From sequence record MK524178.1: a DNA stretch of 64,000 nt. One strand, given 5' to 3'. This DNA comes from Escherichia phage PHB12. The position numbers and the translations under genes are program-made. This document shows, in pieces, positions 12,143-29,834 of the stretch. Below the pieces are notes generated by a model. It was not told where the DNA came from. It saw only the letters and a list, made by a program, of their open reading frames with translations, and did no database searches. Every line of letters begins with the position of its first letter. Position 1 is the stretch's first letter.

Positions 12143-12664
12143 TCAGTAACCATTATCCTGGCGTTCAAAGTTGTGTTGGTTTTTCAAGTAGTAAAGTTTA
12201 AAGATTTCTTCAGCGGAAAGACCCAGACCTTGGAACATATTCAGAACGAAATGCAGAATATCAATCATCTCGAATTTAATTTCAAGCTGGTCTTCAGGAG
12301 ACAGTTCATCGATACGACGATTTCGATATTCAGCATGTTGAGCTTTCCAAGGCTTCCATACAGAGCTAGCGGCTTTTTCACCATTGCTCATACCACCAAG
12401 TGAAGTCAGCAGTTCACGGAATTCATCATCAATATAATCTTTTTGATTACGCAGCCAATCAACAACATCGCCAGCAGTGGCCAATTCATCAGGATGTTTG
12501 TTATGTTCAGGCTTGTCATTTGCCAGACGAACCTGTAAAGATTTCTGCATATCAAGCATTACCTGCAGAGGGTCTTTATCTTCGTGAATCAGAGCATTAA
12601 AATAAGCTTCTTCTGCTTTATCAACACCAGAAATAAGTTGTGAACATTCGTTAAAGTGTGCCAT
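12143..12664 (-). CDS. 56: dCTP pyrophosphatase (MazG-like)
   Basis: MAHFNEC...DPLQVMLDMQ...LEIKFE..IDILHFVLNMF...FKLYYLKN..NF.RQDNGY matches T4 gp56. Confidence 0.85.
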   Translation of the reverse strand: MAHFNECSQLISGVDKAEEAYFNALIHEDKDPLQVMLDMQKSLQVRLANDKPEHNKHPDELATAGDVVDWLRNQKDYIDDEFRELLTSLGGMSNGEKAASSVWKPWKAQHAEYRNRRIDELSPEDQLEIKFEMIDILHFVLNMFQGLGLSAEEIFKLYYLKNQHNFERQDNGY

Positions 12665-18927: not shown

Positions 18928-19269
18928 TTAAAAGAATTTAAATTTTTTCTTGGTCCGTTCATTAAAAGCTTGTTGTACTTGCATTGTAACACATTTTTCA
19001 ACATGTGGTGCAAGTTCTGCTTTTCTGTCCTGGTCAAGAACTGCAAAGTCCATTACGATTTTACCATCAACCCAGTCTAGTTTTGTAATATAGACTATAT
19101 GATGAGAACCATCTTCAAGTGTAATCAGAATCTCTTGAATGACATTTTCCATTGCTGAACGGATAATTTTAAGAGATTCATTAAACACTCGTTCTTTGCG
19201 AATGTCTTCCCCTTCCGAAGAAGGGGATTCATCAACGATTTCTAGATTTAAATCATCGAGATTATTCAT
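18928..19269 (-). CDS. hypothetical protein at gene 40 position
   Basis: Between 41 and uvsX as T4 gene 40; start moved to MNNLDDL. Confidence 0.4.
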   Translation of the reverse strand: MNNLDDLNLEIVDESPSSEGEDIRKERVFNESLKIIRSAMENVIQEILITLEDGSHHIVYITKLDWVDGKIVMDFAVLDQDRKAELAPHVEKCVTMQVQQAFNERTKKKFKFF

Positions 19270-20434
19270 CGAAATCTTCCATTTCGTCAAGGTCGTTTTC
19301 TATATCTGCTGCAGACGGAGCATCAGAAGTTTTAACTGGAACTTTAGTTGTTGCTTTGCAATTAATAAGGTCGTTAACAGCGTCATCAACTTCTTTAATA
19401 GAAGAGATAGCACCTAGTTTATATTTAGTTTCAATTGCATCTCGGAAAGGTTTGTGTTTAAACAAAGGTCCCCAGAATTCTACACAATCAGTAGCTTTAG
19501 CACGCCATGATTTCTCTTCACGAATCATTTCGCCTGTTTCTTCGTCAAGGAATTCTCGAGCATACCACCCGGCTTTAGGCTTAACTACAAAACCAATTTC
19601 AGTTGCCATTTCTAACAAGCCACTGAATGGGTCAATACCACCATCAAAATTAACCGTGATCGGGAAAGTAGATTTTTCTTTAACGGTTCGAGATTTTTCT
19701 GCTTTCAACGTGAAGTCATAACCGGTCAATTCTGTGCCTTCTTTAACCTGACGTTTAGAGATAAAGAATACAGTGTTAGCAGAGTAAAGAATACCTGTAC
19801 CACCACCCATAATCTCTTTAGGATATAGACCGCCGATTTCCATTGCTGTATGGTTGATTGCAACACATGGAATATCTTTAATAGTCAGATAAGGAGTCAC
19901 AATGCGGAACAGAGATTTAAGTGCCTTAGCACGAGACATATCACCTACGACTTTCTCGTTCAATGCATCTTCGGTTTCTTTCTTAGATGCAGTATTACCA
20001 ATCGAGTCAATAAAGATAATAACTTTATCACCACGTTCAATCGCGTCAAGCTGATTAGTCATATCAACTTTAAGTTGTTCGACAGATTGAATCGGAGTAT
20101 GAACTACACGGTCTAAATCAACACCCATTGAACGAAAATAAGATTCTGAAGCACCAAATTCTGAATCATAGAACAAACAAATTGCATCTTTATATTTCTT
20201 CATATATGCTGCAACCATGGTCAGTCCAAACAACGTTTTAAAGTGTTTAGAAGGAGCAGCAAAAATAGTTAAGCCTGATTGCAACCCAGCATTCAGTGCA
20301 CCACCTAATGCAATATTCAACATCGGAATACGAGTAGGGACTTCATCGCGATTATTAAACAACTTAGACTTAGTCAAGTCTGCAGTCATTTTAGAAGTAG
20401 AAGCTTTAATCAGACGAGATTTTAAATCAGACAT
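19262..20434 (-). CDS. uvsX: UvsX recombinase (RecA/Rad51 family)
   Basis: 390 aa; MSDLKSRLIKASTSK... N-terminus and RecA core match T4 UvsX. Confidence 0.9.
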   Translation of the reverse strand: MSDLKSRLIKASTSKMTADLTKSKLFNNRDEVPTRIPMLNIALGGALNAGLQSGLTIFAAPSKHFKTLFGLTMVAAYMKKYKDAICLFYDSEFGASESYFRSMGVDLDRVVHTPIQSVEQLKVDMTNQLDAIERGDKVIIFIDSIGNTASKKETEDALNEKVVGDMSRAKALKSLFRIVTPYLTIKDIPCVAINHTAMEIGGLYPKEIMGGGTGILYSANTVFFISKRQVKEGTELTGYDFTLKAEKSRTVKEKSTFPITVNFDGGIDPFSGLLEMATEIGFVVKPKAGWYAREFLDEETGEMIREEKSWRAKATDCVEFWGPLFKHKPFRDAIETKYKLGAISSIKEVDDAVNDLINCKATTKVPVKTSDAPSAADIENDLDEMEDFDE

Positions 20435-20533
20435 TGTATTTTTCCATAGGCATCATTATATTTTACTCATGTTTAAAAGATAAGACGATTATATACTAAG
20501 GGTTATACAGCATTTAAAACTTTAAACAGGCTC

Positions 20534-21082
20534 TTAACGAGCCCATTTGATAATTTCTGTAATCAAATTATTACGTTCGCTTGCATTAAATCCTATAACT
20601 TTGTTAGCACCATCATGATTAAGTAATTGATACGTTTGGATTTTGTTATGAATTGCAAACTCTTCAAAATATGAAATGACTGTATTAAAACCAAATGAAG
20701 ACAAAGTAATAAGGTCGTCTTCAAAACTTTCAGTCATTTCGTTACGTGTTAAAATAATTGTGAACACATCATGGTTTTGGCAAAGACGAACATAATCCTG
20801 TTCATAAACGTCAAGAACCGAGTCCACATCTTGTCGAATACGTCCATAAACCCAGTTACTAATATATCCACGGTCTAACAGATAAATCTTAGTAGGGTCT
20901 AAATAATTCAACATCGTTTCGAAACAGCCAACTTCATTTCGAGACTTAACATCGAAACGTCCATCAACTGTTCGTTTAGGGAAATCAATCTTTACATATC
21001 TTTCACTAATTTCCATTATGTCATTAATGAAAGTTGTTTTACCAGCATTATCCGGGCCATCTACTAAAATAATTTTAGCCAT
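20534..21082 (-). CDS. P-loop kinase-like protein (nucleoside/nucleotide or sugar kinase fold)
   Basis: 182 aa; Walker A GPDNAGKTT at residues 9-17; DRGY lid-like motif; not a T4 gene at this position. Confidence 0.5.
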   Translation of the reverse strand: MAKIILVDGPDNAGKTTFINDIMEISERYVKIDFPKRTVDGRFDVKSRNEVGCFETMLNYLDPTKIYLLDRGYISNWVYGRIRQDVDSVLDVYEQDYVRLCQNHDVFTIILTRNEMTESFEDDLITLSSFGFNTVISYFEEFAIHNKIQTYQLLNHDGANKVIGFNASERNNLITEIIKWAR

Positions 21083-21083
21083 T

Positions 21084-21983
21084 TTATTCCTCGATTATGA
21101 CATCTTCGTATTTAGGTATATTATACGGTGAAGAAATTAAAGCATTAAAGTAGATGAACTCACCAAGACCTGGATGGAATACTTCTTCAGGATTTTCGAA
21201 ATATTGAATCTTCGGCCGTCCTTTAAGAATTTGATAGTACTCAGTTTTAGTTGGTTTAAAAATTCGAATCAGTGCTTCTTCAGGATACTTATTTCTGTCG
21301 AAGCTATTATTTGGATCGGTTATATAAAGCGGTTGACCTAATTGAATTGCACATTCAACCACTTGTTCAAAACGATAACACGGGTCACTAATTCGAAATG
21401 GATGAAAAATACCATCTAGATGAATAGGAGCCAAATCACCTACAAGACGCTGCATGATGGAAGGACGTATAACTTTCTGCGTTACGATAATCTTATTACC
21501 ATCTGCACCTGCGTTAACCAGCACTTCTTTTTGACGTTCATTCAACACAGTAGTTTGAAGTGAACGATTAACAGACAACATGTCGGTTTTTAAGAATTCG
21601 TCAATATAAAAACGTGGTTTATTAGAGTCTGCAGTAATATTGAAATTGAATTCTACGTCAAAAGTGCCGTCATATCCAGTGATATCTGTGATTAGAAAAT
21701 CACAATCATAATAATCAATTAATGAATCAACCACAAATTCATTTTCAGACCAGAAATATTTACGAGTGTTATATGCGTTATCTTTATACCATAATGGAAC
21801 AAACTTAAATTCTGGGAAAAGACGTTCACATTCTTTAATATCAGATGCATTACGTGGATATGTAATTACATCACCCGGATTAGCACGGTGCAAATGAAGT
21901 TGGAAGTTGCCATCCTTAAGGATAGCATACTGTCCAGTTTCATAAGACCGCATACTCAAGATAGGTACGCGGAAAATAGCCAT
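21084..21983 (-). CDS. hypothetical protein at the beta-glucosyltransferase position
   Basis: 299 aa; no resemblance by eye to T4 Bgt; tightly packed between P-loop gene and gene 42 homologue. Confidence 0.5.
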   Translation of the reverse strand: MAIFRVPILSMRSYETGQYAILKDGNFQLHLHRANPGDVITYPRNASDIKECERLFPEFKFVPLWYKDNAYNTRKYFWSENEFVVDSLIDYYDCDFLITDITGYDGTFDVEFNFNITADSNKPRFYIDEFLKTDMLSVNRSLQTTVLNERQKEVLVNAGADGNKIIVTQKVIRPSIMQRLVGDLAPIHLDGIFHPFRISDPCYRFEQVVECAIQLGQPLYITDPNNSFDRNKYPEEALIRIFKPTKTEYYQILKGRPKIQYFENPEEVFHPGLGEFIYFNALISSPYNIPKYEDVIIEE

Positions 21984-22699
21984 TAGTCAAGGAATCCTTT
22001 AACATAATCAAAATCACGTTCAAACACATGGGCACTTACCATGGTATGAGTATAATCACCAACTTCTACACCACATTCGTTAGCGATATAATGAAGTAAT
22101 TTTCCTTGGAGATAAAAATCCAACTGCATAACAACAGCACAGTTCTGAGAACGCATATGACAGTGGGTATAAAGCTTACCATCACGAATATAATAAGTCA
22201 CTGAGTCAGTACATGGATATTCAAGTGTTTCATCCGAATCAAGCAAAGCCTGATCTGAACTTTCAAGAATTTGAAACACAACTCTTCGTGAATTAGGTTT
22301 CTCTTTAAGTTCTTTTAGAAGAGTTGGTAACTGGGCCGCAATGCGAGGACCATAGAAAGTGTTGAAGTTCGCAGGCAAAGCATCTGATTTTGGTTTAGAA
22401 ATAAATTTAGCGACGTTAGGATATGCCTTAAATGCTTCTTCTGCATCAGTACCACCAGAAATCATAAATTTCCAGAAATCTTCAGCATATTCATAAGAGA
22501 TGCGATTAATACGTGGGTCGGTCATTTTGAATGATGAAGGGGTATCAACAACTACTGTCATAGACCCAATTTCATTACAACGTCCAATACGAGAGTCAGT
22601 AACGAACTGTGGATTTTCTAAAATTTCACGATTGACAGCTTTAAATGCGGATTGAAAATCTGCGGCTTTAATATATTTCATTGTGTTATGTTTTCCCAT
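21983..22699 (-). CDS. 42: thymidylate-synthase-fold pyrimidine C5 hydroxymethylase (gene 42-like, divergent)
   Basis: 238 aa; catalytic-Cys block YPCTDSVTYYIRDGK...HMRSQN parallels T4 gp42 FMCTNTVQYLIRD...NMRSND. Confidence 0.6.
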   Translation of the reverse strand: MGKHNTMKYIKAADFQSAFKAVNREILENPQFVTDSRIGRCNEIGSMTVVVDTPSSFKMTDPRINRISYEYAEDFWKFMISGGTDAEEAFKAYPNVAKFISKPKSDALPANFNTFYGPRIAAQLPTLLKELKEKPNSRRVVFQILESSDQALLDSDETLEYPCTDSVTYYIRDGKLYTHCHMRSQNCAVVMQLDFYLQGKLLHYIANECGVEVGDYTHTMVSAHVFERDFDYVKGFLD

Positions 22700-22978
22700 G
22701 TTTACCTCAATACAGTTATTATATACTCAATTCATAAAAGCTTATTTGAATTTCTTAGCGATGTTGATATAACGTAAAGCTTCAGCATCGATACTTCCAA
22801 GAACACTATGAAGAAATGCATCAGCGTAGTATTCTAGTTGAACAGGTTTCTTTAATCACTTTAGCCGCTTTAGTTTCAAACAGGCCCATAAGGGCCTTTT
22901 TAAGAATTTGTTCGTTGCTGTTAATTTTCATAGTCAAAATCTCTTCATTAAGTTGGTGGTTAAAAGTTTTTCTAGAAA

Positions 22979-24139
22979 TCATTCCGGGTACCTCAAAGCG
23001 TCATCAGAGTTAGTTATATCAATAATAGATATAGAGTTTTCTGCTAACCCATTTTTAGATAACTGACGTTTATAATATCTTTCACAATATGTACACGTCG
23101 TCCCGCAGATTTCATTAGCACAATCGAAATCTGGATGTCTGAACCACCTTTTTTCTAAAAAGCCATCTAACAAAGAGGTTTCAATATTTACTGTATGTGA
23201 AAACTCGGTTTCGTTTTCAAGAGTGAAAATAGTCTCTAAAGGCTTCCACAATTCCAACAAATTACCTTCAAATTTTTCAGAAGCATAAGCTTCAAGAACT
23301 TTCAAAATGTAGTCTGTGCTACCTGTACGTCCTGAAACTTTGAATTGAGTGATACCAATATCATTATAAAGTTTCAAATCTTGAGGACGAACAAAACGAG
23401 TTCTCAACCAGTTAAATGGGTCTGTATCACGAGCTTTAATACAGTGTTGCATTGGATATCCATTTAAGGATTTGGCATCATCTACTGTAACGTCGGTGCT
23501 ATGGAAAATATAGCAAGAGTCACGATAGCTACAATGTGTTGTATACCCTTTACCAGCATTAGAACAGAACTCATTTACAAGAACTTCAAATATTATATTG
23601 TTCTTATTACAAAACTCTGCTGCGCGTTTCAGGAAAGAAACTGAACGGTTCTTATGAATTCCACAGCAGACCTTTTTGATATTATATTGGTCATGCAAAT
23701 ATTTGATTTGAGTTACAGCATCAACATGTAGAATTGTTGAAACTTCAATCTCAATGTCTTTATTGACTTCACGAACAATTTCCATAACAACAGGGTTAGC
23801 GATAGTAATACGCCATACGCCTATTGACCAAAGATACTGAACATAATCCTGAATAGCTTTCTTCTTCCACTCAACTAGTTCTCTTTTTGAACCAGGATTT
23901 ATCGTGTTGAGTGTATAGTTAAAGCAAATACCTAATTCGTTACAACGTTTAACATAATCTTCTAACATCTTTTTGTCAACGTCAGGAAGCCTAAAATCAG
24001 GTCTGGCTGCTACAAAAGCCATTTCTCTTGTAGAGCCGTATACTTCGTTTATCAAGCTATTAGGATAAGTTTTATTGAGCTCTACGATTTTATCAAGAAG
24101 AGCTAAATCAAAATTCGTTCCGATTTTAAAGGTATTCAT
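22979..24139 (-). CDS. cysteine-cluster enzyme-like protein, unknown function
   Basis: 386 aa, 14 Cys including C-terminal CANEICGTTCTYC (C-x3-C-x3-C-x2-C); possible Fe-S or Zn site. Confidence 0.5.
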   Translation of the reverse strand: MNTFKIGTNFDLALLDKIVELNKTYPNSLINEVYGSTREMAFVAARPDFRLPDVDKKMLEDYVKRCNELGICFNYTLNTINPGSKRELVEWKKKAIQDYVQYLWSIGVWRITIANPVVMEIVREVNKDIEIEVSTILHVDAVTQIKYLHDQYNIKKVCCGIHKNRSVSFLKRAAEFCNKNNIIFEVLVNEFCSNAGKGYTTHCSYRDSCYIFHSTDVTVDDAKSLNGYPMQHCIKARDTDPFNWLRTRFVRPQDLKLYNDIGITQFKVSGRTGSTDYILKVLEAYASEKFEGNLLELWKPLETIFTLENETEFSHTVNIETSLLDGFLEKRWFRHPDFDCANEICGTTCTYCERYYKRQLSKNGLAENSISIIDITNSDDALRYPE

Positions 24140-24193
24140 TTTTGCATCTCGCGTTAATTGTTGCGATGGTTTTTGCAGGTCTTACTTAAATTA

Positions 24194-24595
24194 TTATAGA
24201 TTCGGTTTATATGATTTAAATGTTTCGAATTCGCCTTTATTCATAAGAGCTTTGAATTCGTCAGGACGCATAGCTTTGTCGTCGATAATCCAATCATATA
24301 CTGGTTTATGTGTTAGCAAATTATGGTACTTCAATCCAATGTTTGCCAAGTTCTGAATCAGACTTGGGAGAATGTCAATTGCTATACGACCAGGACCGAC
24401 TGACTTCATACCGCGAGCAGTGTAAAGAGTTATTGTATGCCCTGCATCATACAGGGCATTAATGGCAGACACCATTTCGACGTCTGGTTTGAAGTTCACG
24501 TAATCACGATTGTTATTCCACTCTGTTATACAATCATCGACATCAAAACAAAGATTAAGCATGTTTTCTACACGGTGCATTAGATTCGTTCCCAT
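24194..24595 (-). CDS. HAD-superfamily phosphatase-like protein
   Basis: 133 aa; motif I FDVDDCIT and motif II TLYTARG. Confidence 0.5.
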   Translation of the reverse strand: MGTNLMHRVENMLNLCFDVDDCITEWNNNRDYVNFKPDVEMVSAINALYDAGHTITLYTARGMKSVGPGRIAIDILPSLIQNLANIGLKYHNLLTHKPVYDWIIDDKAMRPDEFKALMNKGEFETFKSYKPNL

Positions 24596-26265
24596 TGATG
24601 AGTGATATCGCCACCGATTGGACGATAGGAAACACCAGTTTCTTTATCAGTTAGTACCCATTTACCAGGATTTTTTGTAATCAGAGTAGCCGTTACAGGT
24701 TCTGCTACGTCATAACTAATAGAGCCGTCTTGAAGTACACGGCCCATGTTACGTAATTGCTTAGTCAGAAGTTCCATACCTTTATAATATGCGGCTACCG
24801 CTTTAAGTGGATTATTCTTGAAATAACCACCTAATGCAATCCAGATAATTGCTACAGCCAAATGATGATATTCATTAAACGAACTCATCTTTCCATATTT
24901 GTAAACTAATGGATTGATGTTAATAGTCACATTACAAGTTGTTTCATCAATAGTAAACTGTCCCCAGGTCGGATTAGCGTTGAATTCATCATAACCTGAA
25001 ACAGCATAAAGCACTTTAGCTTCATCGTACAATTTTGGCCCATAAATCTTGGTTTCGCCAAAATATCCACGAGGGTCGATAAACTTAACTTCGCCGTTAT
25101 CAGTAATCATAGTATTACTGAAGTTCGGGTCACCATGAATAACAGAGTACTGTCCCTGAGAACGATTATGATAACGAATAAGGTGTTCTAAAGCTTGTTT
25201 CAGCATTGGCTTCAGACGTCCAATCTTAGTGTAGTTCACATGTGTGATTTTACCAAATGAATCAATCAATGGTTGAATGCTTTCACAACGATCAATAACT
25301 TTCGTATAGAATTCTTTAGTGAAATCACGACGAACAGTTTCAGGACTTACAAAATAAGTGTCTGTGCTGAATTTCAGTGCATCTAAAATTGCATCAACAA
25401 TTTGTGGACGAGCAAGACTCGATTTGGATTTAATATATTCAAATGCCGGCTTACCTTTAATGCGTTCCATTTCAAAGTTATTTTCATTAACAGAAACTAA
25501 CTGAGGAACTGAATCTGATTTCACTTTAAGATACCATGAAATCTCATCTTTCTGAAGAGCTCGGCCCTGTTCGGTTAATGCGAATTTAGTTACAGTTTCT
25601 TCACCAATTTCAACTGCATTAAAACTACGATTAAGTTCACGAACTTCATGAGCTTTTTCAAGTTTAGGCATATCACCTAAATCAATTAGATTCATAAGCT
25701 CTGATTTATTGAATGCGCTGCCGTAAAGGAATTCTACGAAATCACGTCCTTTGCAGTATTCATGAATTTCCTCATCAGTAGAACCCATATAGAATTCCCA
25801 GTCTTTGAACTGATAAATTCCTACAACATTACCACCTGTTGAACCTACGTTAGTGATATTTTCACCGTCGAAATTATATCGACATTCGTCACCCTTAACA
25901 TAGATTGCGTTAACATTCCAAGACCATGAGCCAAAATCAGGAATAATATCACACCAGTTAACAATTACATTATGGCCGTCTAAATCTTTGTGTAATTTAG
26001 CAAGAGCATAAGCAGAACCATACGCTTCATCAACTGTACGAATAGTCACATTGAACCCTTCTTGCTCACAATAAGCTCGAACAGTTTCAGCAAATTTTGA
26101 ATGAACTACTACAATAATTTCATCTGCGCCAAGGTCAGAATAAATTGTATACAAATTGCTCAGAATAGTGTCTTGTTTATAGTTAACAAGCACCTTAGGA
26201 ATATGATGCGTTATTGGATACAAACGAGTTGCCAGTCCAGCACCAAGAATAACAGCTTTTTTCAT
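24580..26265 (-). CDS. bifunctional sugar-1-phosphate nucleotidyltransferase / APH-like sugar kinase
   Basis: 561 aa; N-terminal ILGAGLATRL (NTP-transferase G-x-G-x-R) and C-terminal HGDPNFSNTM...IDPRG (kinase catalytic/DFG-like). Confidence 0.65.
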   Translation of the reverse strand: MKKAVILGAGLATRLYPITHHIPKVLVNYKQDTILSNLYTIYSDLGADEIIVVVHSKFAETVRAYCEQEGFNVTIRTVDEAYGSAYALAKLHKDLDGHNVIVNWCDIIPDFGSWSWNVNAIYVKGDECRYNFDGENITNVGSTGGNVVGIYQFKDWEFYMGSTDEEIHEYCKGRDFVEFLYGSAFNKSELMNLIDLGDMPKLEKAHEVRELNRSFNAVEIGEETVTKFALTEQGRALQKDEISWYLKVKSDSVPQLVSVNENNFEMERIKGKPAFEYIKSKSSLARPQIVDAILDALKFSTDTYFVSPETVRRDFTKEFYTKVIDRCESIQPLIDSFGKITHVNYTKIGRLKPMLKQALEHLIRYHNRSQGQYSVIHGDPNFSNTMITDNGEVKFIDPRGYFGETKIYGPKLYDEAKVLYAVSGYDEFNANPTWGQFTIDETTCNVTININPLVYKYGKMSSFNEYHHLAVAIIWIALGGYFKNNPLKAVAAYYKGMELLTKQLRNMGRVLQDGSISYDVAEPVTATLITKNPGKWVLTDKETGVSYRPIGGDITHQWERI

Positions 26266-26306
26266 GTTGTGGTCCTCATTGGTAAGTAGGAGTATTGTAC
26301 ACTATT

Positions 26307-26450
26307 CTAGTTAAAGCATTCATACTTTGCTTGTAGTCCAATCATAATCCATCCGATTATAAGAGTCGGAATCATTACTGGAGCCGTTAAGCTCCAGTAG
26401 ATAGTCATGACAAGCATCAATAGTAAAAGTCCTATTGTTATTGCTTTCAT
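26307..26450 (-). CDS. small hydrophobic ORF coupled to isomerase gene
   Basis: 47 aa MKAITIGLLLLMLVMTIYW...; ATG overlaps stop of 26447..27082 (ATGA). Confidence 0.3.
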   Translation of the reverse strand: MKAITIGLLLLMLVMTIYWSLTAPVMIPTLIIGWIMIGLQAKYECFN

Positions 26451-27082
26451 TGTTCGCCTCGTAACATGGCACCTAGTGCACCGCCAGGGTGGAACTTAAG
26501 GAAGTCATTAGAGGTAAATCCACGTTCAGACGAAAGGTTGATAGCAAACGTATCGATAAGCGCTAACAACAATGTAGTGGACATGGTCGGAGCCAGAGAA
26601 TTCTCATCGACCTCTACTGCGATGCCTGTACAGAACGTATAATCAAAAAGAGCTTCGTATTCTTGTGGAATGTCTGGGTTACAATGCAACAGAATCTGTT
26701 TGACGTTCGGACGAATCATTTTAAGATGCTTAGCCACGCCTATCATTTCTTCAGTTTTACCGGAACGACTAATATGAATCAACACATCATTAGGCGCAAT
26801 GAATCCTGCATCACCGTGAGAATAATGCCCAGTGTTCAAGTACATACTCGGGATACCGAGTGAAGCAAATGTCTCAGAAGCTTTAGTTGCAATATTAGCA
26901 TTCTTACCAACACCTGTAATAATTACTCGGCTTTCATAATTACTAAGTCCAGGGCGTCGAAGAGTTTCTAGAATAGCATTATAACGAGCAGGGTTTTGAC
27001 TAATTACTTTGGCCATAGCGGCCAAAGAAGAAGCTTGTTTTATGATTGCGTCAATAGCGATAGTAATAGGAGTAGTTTTCAT
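26447..27082 (-). CDS. SIS-domain sugar-phosphate isomerase (KdsD/GutQ/GmhA-like)
   Basis: 211 aa; VIITGVGKNANIATKASETFASLGIPS and SRSGKTEE resemble SIS phosphosugar-binding motifs. Confidence 0.65.
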   Translation of the reverse strand: MKTTPITIAIDAIIKQASSLAAMAKVISQNPARYNAILETLRRPGLSNYESRVIITGVGKNANIATKASETFASLGIPSMYLNTGHYSHGDAGFIAPNDVLIHISRSGKTEEMIGVAKHLKMIRPNVKQILLHCNPDIPQEYEALFDYTFCTGIAVEVDENSLAPTMSTTLLLALIDTFAINLSSERGFTSNDFLKFHPGGALGAMLRGEQ

Positions 27083-27122
27083 ATTTCTCTCATTTAATTA
27101 GTTTGCCGTCAATGTCATTATA

Positions 27123-29834
27123 TCAAAAATCGAACATATCGAACAGAGATGCTTTCTTCTCGTAATCGAGTTTCGCTGCTGATGTGAATCCTTCAAGTGG
27201 TTTAATAAATGTCTTCTCAAGGAGAACAGTGTAGTCCATCCAATGAAGTACGTCGTCTTTAATTAAATCTGTGATTTCAGTGCCAGAAGGCCATGCGATA
27301 CATTTATCACCGAATGGGTTTCCTTCACGTAAAGGCAGAACATATACTTTTTCACCTTCTACAACTTGTGGTGCATCGATATTACCTTTGATAGCCCGGT
27401 TATACGTCAGAATTCCACGAATATGGAATGGGCATTTGGGACCAGGGAATCCACCTACGTCATATTTAGCAATGTTATTCGCAGAAGATACCGACGCGAT
27501 GCTAATATAATTCAATTGACGGAATTCTTTTTCAAACTCTTTAAAATATTCTTGTAATGATTCTTCACCTTCTTGAAGCATACGACGAATACATTCTTTA
27601 AGAGCTTTCTGTACTGCTTTAGGAGTCGAAGATTTCTGAGTCTCTAGACCCATGATTTTGAGTTTAGGCTCAGCGTAACGAGTACCTTCCATATCCCACA
27701 CGTTTAATGCATAACGTTTCTTACCAGTCCAGAATCCACCAATACCTTTAGAACCTAATGGAGGCCCAGCGATAGCTTCTCGGTCCATGAACATTAAGTG
27801 TTGTTTATTGTTCATGTATTCACACATTTCACGGAAACCTCTATCAATAGCTGGTTCCATACGTTCACGTGCAAACTTATCTAAGAAGTCTACCCAATGG
27901 TTGGTATCACGGAATTTAGATTCACCAACCTTATCGATAATTTTATCAGCAGATACGTAAATAGAGTCTGTATCACCATAAAGAACGAAAGCTTCACCTT
28001 CTGTACCACAAACTTCATTCAGATATTCATTAACTTTACGTTCAATCCACTGTAAAGCCATTTGACCAAATGTTGTGATTGCAGTAGCATTACGCAAATC
28101 ATAATAACGGAACCAAACGTTTCCAAGTGCACCATAAAGTGAGTTGATAAGCAATTTACGGTTAATTTGAGCAGTCATACCTGCAACTTCAGTACGTTGA
28201 GCTCTAAACAACATTTCATTAAGAGATTTAGCAGACAACTTTTTAATCTTTTCTTTAATCTCATCACTGAAGTCGAAACGATAATCAACATCTAATGGTT
28301 CGTCAACAGAAAGATTAGGATTATGCAATGCCTCTTTAATTATTTCACCATTACGTTGAGCTGCAAGCATGTAACCTTTATGTTCTTTACGTTGATTAAA
28401 GACCTTAGTGATTTCAGTTGGAACTACACCATCACGGTCTTTATAATACATCATGCCGTTAGGAGAGCAACTGTACACATCTGAAGGACGTTCAGCAACA
28501 GCGTTAATATAATCATGCAATGGAGCTACTTTAAACGTTCCTGCTATTGTTTCTGGGCTAATATTCACTTGGCGAATAATACTTGGATACAGAGATGTAA
28601 GGTCGAAACTCATTACATATTTGTATCGATTCGGAATAGGTTCCTTAACAAAAGCGCCGGGATAAGGTTGAACCGGGTGAGAACGACCTTGTGGAATCAC
28701 CTTGTTCTGCTCTTTAAGGCTATTAAAAATAATAGCATCCCATGTTTTAATTGGACTAAACACAGATTGAATCTGTATCTTAGCATAATAACCCATGTCC
28801 AAACTCAAGTTGATGAACTGACGCTTAGCATCAATTTGCAATACACGGTACACGTCGATAATGTTATAAGAAATATATCGTTGGTGATTGCTTTCACGAA
28901 GCTTAGAAATAGGGCCGTCATATTTCAGTTTACCAACGTTCAATTCAAATTCTGAAATGTAATCCAGAGAATATGATGGTTGATTGGTAAAAGAGAATTT
29001 TTTGTAAAGGTCAATGTAATCAAGAACAGAGATACCGAACAATGTAATGATTTCACGAGAACCATACATGTTTTCGATAACTTTAACACGAGTTTTACGA
29101 TGTGGTGATAAACGTTTCGCAGTAGATTCGCCAAAAATATTCTTGATTCGGTTATACACATACGGAATATCAAATGACTCAACGTTCCATCCAGTCAAAA
29201 TGACAGGAGTTTTCTGTTGCCAGAAGTTGAGATATTCCATCAACAATTCTTTTTCGTTATCGAACGGCATATAAATGATTTTATCGATAATTTCAGATGG
29301 AACTTCATCACCACCTTGTTCTTGAAGCTTAGCAGCGATTTCAATAGACCATTCTTCTACATTACCATATGGAGAATTCAATAGATCAAATACATAGAAC
29401 CTGTCGTCAATTGAGTCATAATGGGTGATAGCATCAATCGGATGTTTTGCTTGTGACGGCTCAGGGAACCCATCCGGAGATGTTACTTCGATGTCGAAGT
29501 TAGCCACACGAATTTTTGTATGGTCATATTTGATTTCATAGTTATAAGTGTCAGACAAATACGCCAATTTGAAATCGTCCATGCCAAGTGCTTCAAGTCC
29601 GATATCTTCCATGCGTTTAATCCATTGGGAGGCATCACGCATATTGGCGAACAACTTACGAGTACACGGCTTACCGTAGATATCGAAATATTTCGTAGCC
29701 TGACTTTCTGGGCAATGAGCAAACAGTGATGGTTTATATTCTACTTCACGAGTACGTTCACGGCCATTAGAATCGATGTAACGTTCAAAAATTGAATCAC
29801 CAATCTGTTCAACCGTTAAGTAAAATTCTTTCAT
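27123..29834 (-). CDS. 43: DNA polymerase (family B)
   Basis: 903 aa; MKEFYLTVEQIGDSIFERYIDSNGRERTREV...; exo motifs FDIE and YNIIDV, pol motifs DLTSLYPS and YGDTDS; matches RB69 gp43 from memory. Confidence 0.97.
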   Translation of the reverse strand: MKEFYLTVEQIGDSIFERYIDSNGRERTREVEYKPSLFAHCPESQATKYFDIYGKPCTRKLFANMRDASQWIKRMEDIGLEALGMDDFKLAYLSDTYNYEIKYDHTKIRVANFDIEVTSPDGFPEPSQAKHPIDAITHYDSIDDRFYVFDLLNSPYGNVEEWSIEIAAKLQEQGGDEVPSEIIDKIIYMPFDNEKELLMEYLNFWQQKTPVILTGWNVESFDIPYVYNRIKNIFGESTAKRLSPHRKTRVKVIENMYGSREIITLFGISVLDYIDLYKKFSFTNQPSYSLDYISEFELNVGKLKYDGPISKLRESNHQRYISYNIIDVYRVLQIDAKRQFINLSLDMGYYAKIQIQSVFSPIKTWDAIIFNSLKEQNKVIPQGRSHPVQPYPGAFVKEPIPNRYKYVMSFDLTSLYPSIIRQVNISPETIAGTFKVAPLHDYINAVAERPSDVYSCSPNGMMYYKDRDGVVPTEITKVFNQRKEHKGYMLAAQRNGEIIKEALHNPNLSVDEPLDVDYRFDFSDEIKEKIKKLSAKSLNEMLFRAQRTEVAGMTAQINRKLLINSLYGALGNVWFRYYDLRNATAITTFGQMALQWIERKVNEYLNEVCGTEGEAFVLYGDTDSIYVSADKIIDKVGESKFRDTNHWVDFLDKFARERMEPAIDRGFREMCEYMNNKQHLMFMDREAIAGPPLGSKGIGGFWTGKKRYALNVWDMEGTRYAEPKLKIMGLETQKSSTPKAVQKALKECIRRMLQEGEESLQEYFKEFEKEFRQLNYISIASVSSANNIAKYDVGGFPGPKCPFHIRGILTYNRAIKGNIDAPQVVEGEKVYVLPLREGNPFGDKCIAWPSGTEITDLIKDDVLHWMDYTVLLEKTFIKPLEGFTSAAKLDYEKKASLFDMFDF

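Follow-up and report, generated by a model that had tools for sequence, protein, structure and literature searches.

The 64,000 nt stretch of DNA from Escherichia phage PHB12 that was analyzed here (MK524178.1; the window) comes from a Mosigvirus, an RB69-like coliphage. In the position that gene 42 occupies in T4, the window carries an ORF, 21983–22699, whose product belongs to the thymidylate synthase (TS) family. Is this protein a hydroxymethylase like T4 gp42, a thymidylate synthase, or an enzyme with another chemistry? We conclude, with a probability of roughly 93%, that it is a flavin- and O2-dependent dCMP 5-hydroxylase built on the TS fold. This assignment is based on the fold, on orthology at 98.7–99.2% identity, on the residues C163, E160, N186, and D194, on the gene context, and on published experiments with the orthologues. 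The fold, the residues, the orthology, and the context were computed here; the identity of the product, the origin of its oxygen, and the binding of flavin were determined by others, for 99%-identical proteins. The enzyme is thus already known, from publications of 2025–2026 that include crystal structures and the D169N replacement, and the window adds another member.

Fold, family, and active-site residues

The preliminary description of this locus, made from the letters alone, had given the exact boundaries of the ORF and had correctly read in its translation the string HMRSQN, which contains R183-S184-Q185-N186. The translation also includes YPCTDSVTYYIRDGK, with Cys163. A match to Pfam PF00303 (E = 1.9e-15) identifies the TS fold. 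The closest characterized relative is AfhB of phage HY126 (XAN60475; PDB 9IQC, 9IR2, and 9IQU; He et al., Nat Chem Biol 2026), which agrees in length, gene neighbourhood, and active-site residues and is identical at 236 of the 238 positions (99.2%). AfhB has K in place of E88 and A in place of T126; there are no other differences, and the sequence of 9IQC differs at these two positions as well. RB69 gp48 (RB69ORF048c), which is likewise encoded in the Mosigvirus cluster between gp43 and uvsX, is 98.7% identical, with three substitutions. None of the differences from either protein falls at an aligned active-site residue.

An AF2 model of the protein (pLDDT 86, with low values for residues 90–110) matched 9IQC with a TM score of 0.94 and 9IQU with scores of 0.88 to 0.96. 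The next structural match was MilA, the CMP 5-hydroxymethylase of mildiomycin synthesis (PDB 5B6D/5JNH; TM 0.82–0.84); beyond the AfhB family, no solved structure is closer. MilA could be aligned over the full length by phmmer (E = 2e-11) and shares the Asp at the position of E. coli N177. It differs in its length of about 320 aa, its dependence on folate, its ribonucleotide substrate, and its hydroxymethylating activity, and the identity is only about 22%. In tblastn searches of the window, the queries T4 gp42 and ThyA of E. coli matched ORF 21983–22699 only; a further gene of the TS family, be it a true gene 42 or td, was not found.

The gene 42 homologue had been described as strongly diverged, and indeed BLASTP aligned 218 residues with T4 gp42 at 25% identity (E = 1e-12), while solved thymidylate synthases and MilA outscored T4 gp42 as matches. 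The T4 strings used for that description are correct, as shown by comparison with the full sequence of T4 gp42, which equals PDB 1B49 residue for residue. The change from Asp to Asn that had been noticed by eye is real: in three alignments (BLASTP, MAFFT with T4 gp42 and E. coli ThyA, and phmmer to solved thymidylate synthases), T4 R-S-N-D171 corresponds to R-S-Q-N186. The column of N186 holds D171 in T4 and D169 in E. coli, and that of Q185 holds N170 and C168, respectively.

This Asp had been thought to distinguish hydroxymethylases from thymidylate synthases, which was an error. D171 is equivalent to E. coli D169 (MAFFT) and is a folate-contacting Asp common to both enzymes. The discriminating positions are T4 D179/E. 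coli N177, which determines the pyrimidine specificity, and T4 D145/E. coli L143 (Lee et al., NAR 2026, PMC13326640). At both of them, the MAFFT alignment places residues of the hydroxymethylase type, D194 and E160, respectively. Of the altered chemistry or substrate that had been considered, the first part was therefore well founded, D169N being the published signature of flavin/O2-dependent C5 hydroxylation of dCMP, and the second was not, because the substrate is still dCMP.

C163, E160, N186, and D194 were invariant in all 120 nearest homologues, which are 55–97% identical to the ORF product. In a set of 150 representatives, obtained by clustering at 50% identity, Asn occupied the 186 position in 72, and Asp the 194 position in 141, the remaining nine being fragments. 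Asn186 is a fixed feature of the family and not the result of chance or of a sequencing error. Relatives of about 300 aa, taken as MilA/gp42-like, retained Asp at the D169 position. However, as some relatives show, Glu at the L143 position can be combined with Asp, Ser, Cys, or His at that of D169, and thus the D169N signature is not the whole story.

The comparison with E. coli ThyA revealed a shared fold, a shared catalytic Cys, and a shared phosphate-binding Arg pair (R138/R139, equivalent to R126/R127), as well as equivalents of ThyA R166-S167 (R183-S184) and H207 (H224) in the MAFFT alignment. In contrast, N177 is replaced by D, D169 by N, L143 by E, and H147 by T, and the C-terminal lid is missing. 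Substrate, cofactor, and product would all be unlike those of ThyA, judging from the orthologues. Over the N-terminal half, the MAFFT alignment with ThyA is unreliable (equivalents of W80, Y94, and E58) and coincides with the low-pLDDT residues 90–110 of the model, and the claim of a lost folate contact is therefore limited to the D169 position. In the same alignment, the C-terminal 45 or so residues of ThyA had no counterpart in the ORF.

The gene cluster and its U32-family member

The ORF lies inside an arabinosyl-5-hydroxycytosine cluster (Table 1). The order of genes between gp43 and uvsX (API, NTase/kinase, HAD, U32, TS homologue, GT, and kinase) is conserved, and all linked genes expected of the AfhB branch are present, that is, those for UDP-arabinose synthesis, a DNA arabinosyltransferase, a nucleotide kinase, and a dCTPase, the last one (gp56) at a distance of 8 kb from the hydroxylase gene. 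The reference sequence of RB69 contains frameshift artefacts in gp46:47 and gp52:53, whereas in the window each of the two is one continuous ORF (299 and 561 aa). The ATG of the arabinosyltransferase gene overlaps the stop codon of the hydroxylase gene (TAATG), and this stop/start overlap suggests that the two genes are translationally coupled. A scan of the region 20400–27200 for sigma-70 promoters and terminators yielded counts that did not exceed those of shuffled sequences.

Table 1. Positions in the window of the hydroxylase gene, its active-site codons, and associated genes and signals.
Feature	Position	Strand	Evidence
gp56-type dCTP pyrophosphatase, supplies dCMP and depletes dCTP	12143..12664	-	PHROG 173, E = 1.6e-45; orthologue annotation
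UvsX recombinase, synteny anchor on the other side of the gene-42 position from gp43	19262..20434	-	Pfam T4_UVSX_C, E = 1e-38
P-loop nucleotide kinase, 182 aa, RB69 gp45 orthologue	20534..21082	-	PHROG 761 thymidylate kinase, E = 7e-45; Lee et al. Table 1
Putative DNA arabinosyltransferase 1, 299 aa, RB69 gp46:47 orthologue	21084..21983	-	PHROG 3891; assignment from Lee et al. Table 1
5-Hydroxy-dCMP synthase / dCMP 5-hydroxylase, HY126 AfhB / RB69 gp48 orthologue, 238 aa	21983..22699	-	ORF, homology, predicted structure
Asp194 codon GAT (E. coli N177, T4 D179), dCMP/dUMP specificity residue	22118..22120	-	Alignments, codon read
Asn186 codon AAC (E. coli D169, T4 D171), published D169N signature	22142..22144	-	Alignments, codon read, Lee et al.
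Cys163 codon TGT, catalytic nucleophile (E. coli C146, T4 C148)	22211..22213	-	Alignment, codon read
Glu160 codon GAA (E. coli L143, T4 D145), acidic, typical of non-methylating TS homologues	22220..22222	-	Alignments, codon read, Lee et al.
GAGG Shine-Dalgarno motif, 5 nt upstream of the hydroxylase ATG	22705..22708	-	Sequence read
TATAAT, farther upstream of the hydroxylase gene	22718-22723	-	Sequence read
Conserved small ORF, 53 aa, between the U32 gene and the hydroxylase gene	22821..22982	-	PHROG 8601, E = 1.6e-28; annotated in relatives
U32-family protein, 386 aa, RB69 gp50 orthologue	22979..24139	-	Pfam PF01136, E = 6e-11
HAD-type sugar-phosphate phosphatase, HY126 AfhF / RB69 gp51 orthologue	24194..24595	-	NCBIfam TIGR01689, E = 4e-13; PHROG 1238; Lee et al.
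Bifunctional nucleotidyltransferase and kinase, 561 aa, HY126 AfhE / RB69 gp52:53 orthologue, UDP-arabinose-making	24580..26265	-	Pfam NTP_transferase, weak kinase matches; PHROG 4098; Lee et al.
Arabinose-5-phosphate isomerase, SIS domain, RB69 gp55 orthologue	26447..27082	-	Pfam SIS; NCBIfam KpsF/KdsD; PHROG 5670
gp43 DNA polymerase, synteny anchor on one side of the gene-42 position	27123..29834	-	Pfam DNA_pol_B

The cluster may contain a second enzyme for the same step. The AfhB chemistry requires O2, and the host largely lives without it. Under anoxic conditions, the Fe-S protein of the U32 family could hydroxylate the cytosine nucleotide or the DNA independently of O2; the TS homologue would then be dispensable under these conditions and represent one of two routes to 5-hydroxycytosine. 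We regard this division of labour as rather unlikely. It is favoured by the fact that RlhA (ho5C) and TrhP (ho5U), factors of O2-independent, prephenate-dependent C5 hydroxylation of pyrimidines, belong to the U32 family; the similarity of the phage protein to RlhA and TrhP is remote. By motif position, its invariant residues E190, C203, and C209 match E162, C170, and C177, which are essential in TrhP, with computed alignment backing only C209, opposite RlhA C176 and UbiV C180. The protein had no sequence match in the PDB, and its match to the NCBIfam model UbiU stayed below the threshold.

The U32 protein is at least 82% identical across genera, compared with 70–80% for AfhB. Homologues with 50–58% identity are encoded among genes of nucleotide metabolism and DNA glycosylation with no TS homologue nearby, their neighbours including genes for dCMP deaminase, deoxynucleoside kinase, a TAGT-like glycosyltransferase, and UDP-galactopyranose mutase. 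However, Dhakavirus and Kanagawavirus phages of enteric hosts have the cluster without the U32 gene, so that the U32 protein is not required for the modification, and Lee et al. (PMC13326640) suggested that it is a sugar or heterocycle reductase. That the U32 protein of the window acts as an O2-independent, prephenate-type C5-hydroxylase on deoxycytidine nucleotides or DNA is put forward here only tentatively, as a doubtful candidate function. The U32 gene was missing from the Acinetobacter and Pseudomonas phages examined; a clean division of its presence between aerobic and anaerobic hosts was considered and rejected, because it is missing also from the E. coli Dhakavirus MX01 and from Kosakonia phage 305.

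The reaction and competing assignments

For the TS homologue itself, the experiments with the orthologues are informative. RB69 gp48, together with a dNMP kinase, led to 5hodC in the DNA of E. coli, and in a side-by-side comparison with T4 gp42 it yielded 5hodC and not 5hmdC. The product was labelled by 18O2, and thus its oxygen stems from O2. Purified gp48 was yellow and released FMN, the flavin being loosely bound. D169N is kept in all 5hodCMP-producing homologues and is diagnostic of the branch: nine homologues were chosen by this signature, and nine of nine made 5hodC (all Lee et al., PMC13326640). According to the account given there, He et al. (2026, Nat Chem Biol) obtained a flavin-bound structure of the HY126 enzyme and reconstituted the reaction in vitro. 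The flavin is named differently in the sources, as FMN by Lee et al. and as FAD or riboflavin in the PDB titles, 9IQC being entitled "Monooxygenase dependent on riboflavin with dCMP and FAD", and 9IQU "phage HY126 dCMP hydroxylase-AfhB with substrate dCMP". Arabosyl-linked 5-hydroxy-dC in Mosigvirus DNA was confirmed independently (PMC13390438).

Many GenBank records, and the 2018 paper on RB69, assume that the gene encodes a diverged dCMP hydroxymethylase of the T4 gp42 type, which would use methylene-THF to form hm-dCMP; several records annotate it in this way, and hmC in RB69 had been inferred from the gene 42 homology (Thomas et al. 2018). The two proteins do have much in common. The ORF shares with T4 gp42 (PDB 1B5D/1B49) the TS fold, dCMP as the substrate, a short C-terminus, and the syntenic slot between uvsX and gene 43, and it has kept the catalytic Cys, the specificity Asp (D179/D194), and, at the L143 position, an acidic residue that precedes the Cys. 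Yet the identity is no more than 25%; T4 gp42 was not among the 60 best PDB sequence matches, thymidylate synthases and MilA being found there, and a reverse search with T4 gp42 reached 9IQC with an E value of only 3.8e-6. The preliminary description had named the conservation of all gp42 catalytic residues, with hm-dCMP as the product, as the outcome that would speak against altered chemistry. Instead, Asn186 replaces T4 D171, the folate-contacting Asp is Asn in every close homologue, and the 99%-identical proteins make 5hodC and crystallize with flavin. For the orthologues, a product of +16 Da and not of +30 Da was reported from dCMP, and in the DNA of RB69 and Mosigvirus NP the sugar is ether-linked directly to C5. 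Where T4 gp42 converts dCMP to 5-CH2OH-dCMP with methylene-THF, the protein studied here would, by analogy with its orthologues, form 5-OH-dCMP with flavin and O2, and a hydroxymethylase is very improbable.

That the ORF encodes a thymidylate synthase that converts dUMP to dTMP is less credible still: the label prevails in Pfam, PHROGs, and most public annotations, the best family matches and the molecule of PDB 9IQC are so named, and the Pfam superfamily model passes, but the NCBIfam TS equivalogs gave only 17–70 bits against cut-offs of 108–427 (e.g., 70 against 175), Asp at the N177 position excludes a preference for dUMP (as known from the variants N177D of E. coli and N229D of L. casei), Glu160 is found in place of Leu143, the C-terminal residues of ThyA are lacking, and the crystal structures 9IQC/9IQU contain dCMP.

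In the mechanism that we propose for the dCMP 5-hydroxylase, Cys163 would add to C6 of dCMP, a step common to all enzymes of the TS family, and Asp194 would protonate or hydrogen-bond the N3/N4 edge of the cytosine, like Asp179 in T4, rendering C5 nucleophilic. C5 would then attack the distal oxygen of a flavin C4a-hydroperoxide, not a folate-derived methylene. The pocket that once held folate is where reduced flavin and O2 are expected to yield the hydroperoxide, and Asn186, the equivalent of the Asp that hydrogen-bonds the pterin ring in TS, may re-tune this pocket to suit the flavin. 5-Hydroxy-dCMP would be freed once C5 has lost its proton and Cys163 has been eliminated. The reduced flavin is probably free flavin that a host reductase has reduced, because the protein of 238 aa is devoid of a reductase domain. 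In longer AfhB-like proteins, no fused flavin reductase was found; the fusions seen were to histidine-phosphatase, to MazG, and, weakly and below the threshold, to DUF3310. The 5hodCMP would be phosphorylated and then built into DNA by the phage polymerase, with dCTP being removed by gp56. The incorporated 5hodC would be arabinosylated on the DNA, with UDP-arabinose provided by the products of the neighbouring genes, and the outcome would be restriction-resistant DNA with arabinosyl-5-hydroxycytosine.

Implications for phage DNA modification

The fold of a folate enzyme has been re-purposed here as a flavin monooxygenase. AfhB is the founder of a second family of glycosylated cytosines in phages, in which the sugar is attached to 5-hydroxycytosine and not to 5-hydroxymethylcytosine, and glycosylated cytosines alter the encounters of phages with restriction, CRISPR, and type IV systems. 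Across hundreds of phage genomes, the public labels of these genes ("thymidylate synthase", "dCMP hydroxymethylase", or "hypothetical protein") are wrong or empty, and the triad of Asn186, Asp194, and Glu160 offers a simple rule to correct them.

The U32 gene adds a testable candidate for an oxygen-independent route. If it had this function, a gut phage would possess dual routes to 5-hydroxycytosine, an aerobic one via the flavin enzyme AfhB and an anaerobic one via the U32 protein. The two routes would mirror the TrhO/TrhP pair of E. coli and, likewise, UbiI/H/F versus UbiU/V of the same species. In uncultured phage-like contigs, base hydroxylation would then depend solely on the U32 homologues with 50–58% identity.

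Identity of the thymidylate synthase homologue

The 238-aa thymidylate synthase (TS) homologue encoded at the T4 gene 42 position is an orthologue of an enzyme that has been crystallised and assayed, and is already known. Its sequence differs from that of PDB entries 9IQC, 9IR2 and 9IQU at two residues only (E88K and T126A), and exactly the same differences occur in the HY126 genome copy (XAN60475). The RB69 orthologue gp48 (RB69ORF048c) is 98.7% identical. In a Foldseek search with an AF2 model of the protein (pLDDT 86), the matches were 9IQC ("Monooxygenase dependent on riboflavin with dCMP and FAD"; TM 0.94), 9IQU ("phage HY126 dCMP hydroxylase-AfhB with substrate dCMP") and, as a third group, the CMP hydroxymethylase MilA (TM 0.82–0.84).

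The protein contains YPCTDSVTYYIRDGK, which includes Cys163, and HMRSQN (Arg183-Ser184-Gln185-Asn186). BLASTP aligned it with T4 gp42 at 25% identity over 218 residues (E = 1e-12), pairing HMRSQNCAVVMQLDFYLQ with NMRSNDVVFGFRNDYAWQ. The same residue pairing was obtained by MAFFT with both references and by phmmer against solved TS structures; the T4 gp42 and E. coli ThyA references were exact matches to PDB 1B49 and 1AOB. In the MAFFT alignment, ThyA carries about 45 folate-closing C-terminal residues beyond the point where the window protein stops.

Corresponding residues in the TS homologue and the two reference enzymes
Window	T4 gp42	E. coli ThyA
Cys163	C148	C146
Glu160	D145	L143
Arg183-Ser184	R168-S169	R166-S167
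Asn186	D171	D169
Asp194	D179	N177

All three methods bear out the by-eye alignment of the preliminary description, in which T4 RSND corresponds to RSQN. Its suspicion of altered chemistry was also justified, and the Asp-to-Asn substitution is the published signature of the family (D169N). However, the role it gave to this Asp, that of discriminating hydroxymethylases from TSs, does not hold, because the RS-x-D Asp is common to both enzyme kinds. The true dUMP/dCMP specificity switch is T4 D179 (E. coli N177), which is kept as Asp194.

Lee et al. (NAR 2026, PMC13326640) reported that D169N is the single active-site change common to all homologues producing 5-hydroxy-dCMP (5hodCMP), and that all nine diverse homologues picked for D169N made 5hodC. 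In their in vivo assay, RB69 gp48 with a dNMP kinase introduced 5-hydroxy-dC into E. coli DNA, and T4 gp42 yielded 5hmdC. The gp48 product was labelled by 18O2, and the purified enzyme was yellow and released FMN. A flavin-containing HY126 structure and in vitro reconstitution are credited there to He et al. (Nat Chem Biol 2026). In the DNA of RB69 and Acinetobacter phage DLP3, arabinose is ether-linked directly to cytosine C5 (PMC13326640), and a second paper confirmed arabinosylated 5-hydroxy-dC in Mosigvirus DNA (PMC13390438). The older view, hydroxymethylcytosine, had been inferred from gp42 homology (Thomas et al., 2018).

Conservation and a probable mechanism

Asn186, Asp194, Glu160 and Cys163 were present in all 120 nearest database homologues (55–97% identity). 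The survey was widened to 150 representatives of 50%-identity clusters, 141 of which have Asp at the N177 position (E. coli numbering), the remaining nine being fragments. The D169 position is occupied by Asn (72), Asp (49), Ser (15), Cys (5) or His (2). Asp at D169 co-occurs with Asp at L143 and Tyr at Y209 in apparently MilA/gp42-like proteins about 300 aa long, and Glu at L143 accompanies Asn, Ser, Cys or His. Judged by sequence, the Ser, Cys and His relatives, which combine Glu at L143 with Asp at N177, fall outside the published D169N rule; they include P0141, P0145, P0163, P0171, P0182, P0188, P0192, P0193, P0195, P0198, P0205, P0207, P0214, P0215, P0221, P0222, P0228 and others.

Some Asn-type homologues are fusions. 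Four representatives (P0124, P0126, P0127 and P0131; 427–463 aa) carry a C-terminal histidine-phosphatase domain. In one case each, the partner is a MazG-type NTP pyrophosphohydrolase (P0159, 341 aa), echoing the gp56 dCTPase, or a weak, sub-threshold DUF3310 match (P0146, 330 aa).

Established TS chemistry and the published product and flavin data can be combined into a mechanism. Cys163 would attack C6 of dCMP, and Asp194, like T4 Asp179, would stabilise the protonated cytosine. The nucleophilic C5 would then attack a flavin C4a-hydroperoxide located in what was once the folate pocket, and deprotonation with elimination of Cys163 would free 5hodCMP. Asn186 stands in place of the pterin-binding carboxylate of TS, and we infer that it would suit the flavin imide edge. 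Reduced flavin is probably supplied by the host, because the protein lacks a reductase domain and no flavin reductase fusion was found among its relatives.

Gene neighbourhood

In T4, the slot between uvsX and gp43 holds beta-gt and gene 42, whereas in the window it holds the TS homologue. No second TS-family gene was detected in the 64-kb window when T4 gp42 and E. coli ThyA served as tblastn queries. The TS homologue has a GAGG motif 5 nt before its ATG, and at its other end the stop codon and the first codon of the putative arabinosyltransferase gene overlap (TAATG, 21981-21985). The surrounding 4.1 kb share 97–98% identity with over 150 Mosigvirus phages of Escherichia and Shigella (RB69/JS09 group), including ST0, 348Ecol098PP and HY126.

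Features of the window, minus-strand genes in the order read, from gp43 to uvsX
Feature	Position	Strand	Remarks
gp43 DNA polymerase	27123-29834	-	
Arabinose-5-phosphate isomerase	26447-27082	-	
Nucleotidyltransferase/kinase	24580-26265	-	561 aa; intact single ORF
HAD phosphatase	24194-24595	-	
U32-family protein	22979-24139	-	
Small ORF	22821-22982	-	Up to 53 aa; PHROG 8601; between U32 and hydroxylase genes
TS homologue (hydroxylase)	21983-22699	-	238 aa; Pfam thymidylate synthase PF00303, E = 1.9e-15
Glycosyltransferase-like protein (putative arabinosyltransferase)	21084-21983	-	299 aa; intact single ORF
P-loop nucleotide kinase	20534-21082	-	
uvsX	19262-20434	-	
gp56-type dCTPase	12143-12664		

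The counterparts of the 561-aa and 299-aa genes are split in the RB69 reference but unbroken in the window; Lee et al. (PMC13326640) ascribed the splits to sequencing errors. The small ORF is conserved in relatives, with varying annotated starts (length 123–162 nt). In related phages, homing-endonuclease genes are inserted in the cluster, either separating the TS homologue from the glycosyltransferase or lying in the recombinase gene (Kosakonia phage 305, locus L007, 6737-7396; Pseudomonas phage PspYZU05, locus L004, 10167-11018), and are absent from the corresponding sites of the window. An HNH nuclease gene is found near gene 46 in 348Ecol098PP, a close relative.

The U32 gene and public annotations

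Lee et al. (PMC13326640) list the U32 product only as "sugar or heterocycle reductase" and refer to the RNA hydroxylation pathways of RlhA and TrhP/TrhO without connecting them to the phage gene. The U32 family includes RlhA (ho5C2501) and TrhP (ho5U34), both O2-independent and prephenate-dependent; E162, C170 and C177 are essential in TrhP (Sakai et al., 2019). E190, C192, C203, C209 and C233 are invariant in the phage protein and 120 homologues, as is a C-terminal CX4CX3CX2C (C340, C345, C349, C352). By motif position, E190, C203 and C209 match the essential TrhP residues; the C-terminal motif is extra. C209 aligns opposite RlhA C176 and UbiV C180.

Among cultured phages, U32 homologues occur only at 82% identity or more, in Straboviridae of Enterobacterales and Shewanella. 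Acinetobacter and Pseudomonas phages lack the gene in clusters that are otherwise identical. It is accessory, since the clusters of E. coli Dhakavirus MX01 and Kosakonia phage 305 also lack it. Metagenomic homologues (50–58% identity; loci L008-L013) adjoin nucleotide-metabolism and DNA-glycosylation genes (dCMP deaminase, thymidylate/deoxynucleoside kinases, UDG-like, deoxyribonucleotidase, TAGT-like glycosyltransferase, dUTPase/DCD and UDP-galactopyranose mutase), and no TS homologue lies within 7–8 kb of any of them. From the residues, distribution and gene context, we propose, as a speculative reading that we consider rather unlikely, that this subfamily may be an O2-independent pyrimidine deoxynucleotide/DNA hydroxylase, in PHB12 the anaerobic counterpart of AfhB.

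Public records label the TS homologue thymidylate synthase, dCMP hydroxymethylase, deoxycytidylate 5-hydroxymethyltransferase or hypothetical protein. For the HAD phosphatase they give 'phosphoheptose isomerase' or 'haloacid dehydrogenase', and for the U32 protein 'peptidase' or 'protease'. The public labels for these three proteins are outdated or wrong in hundreds of genomes.
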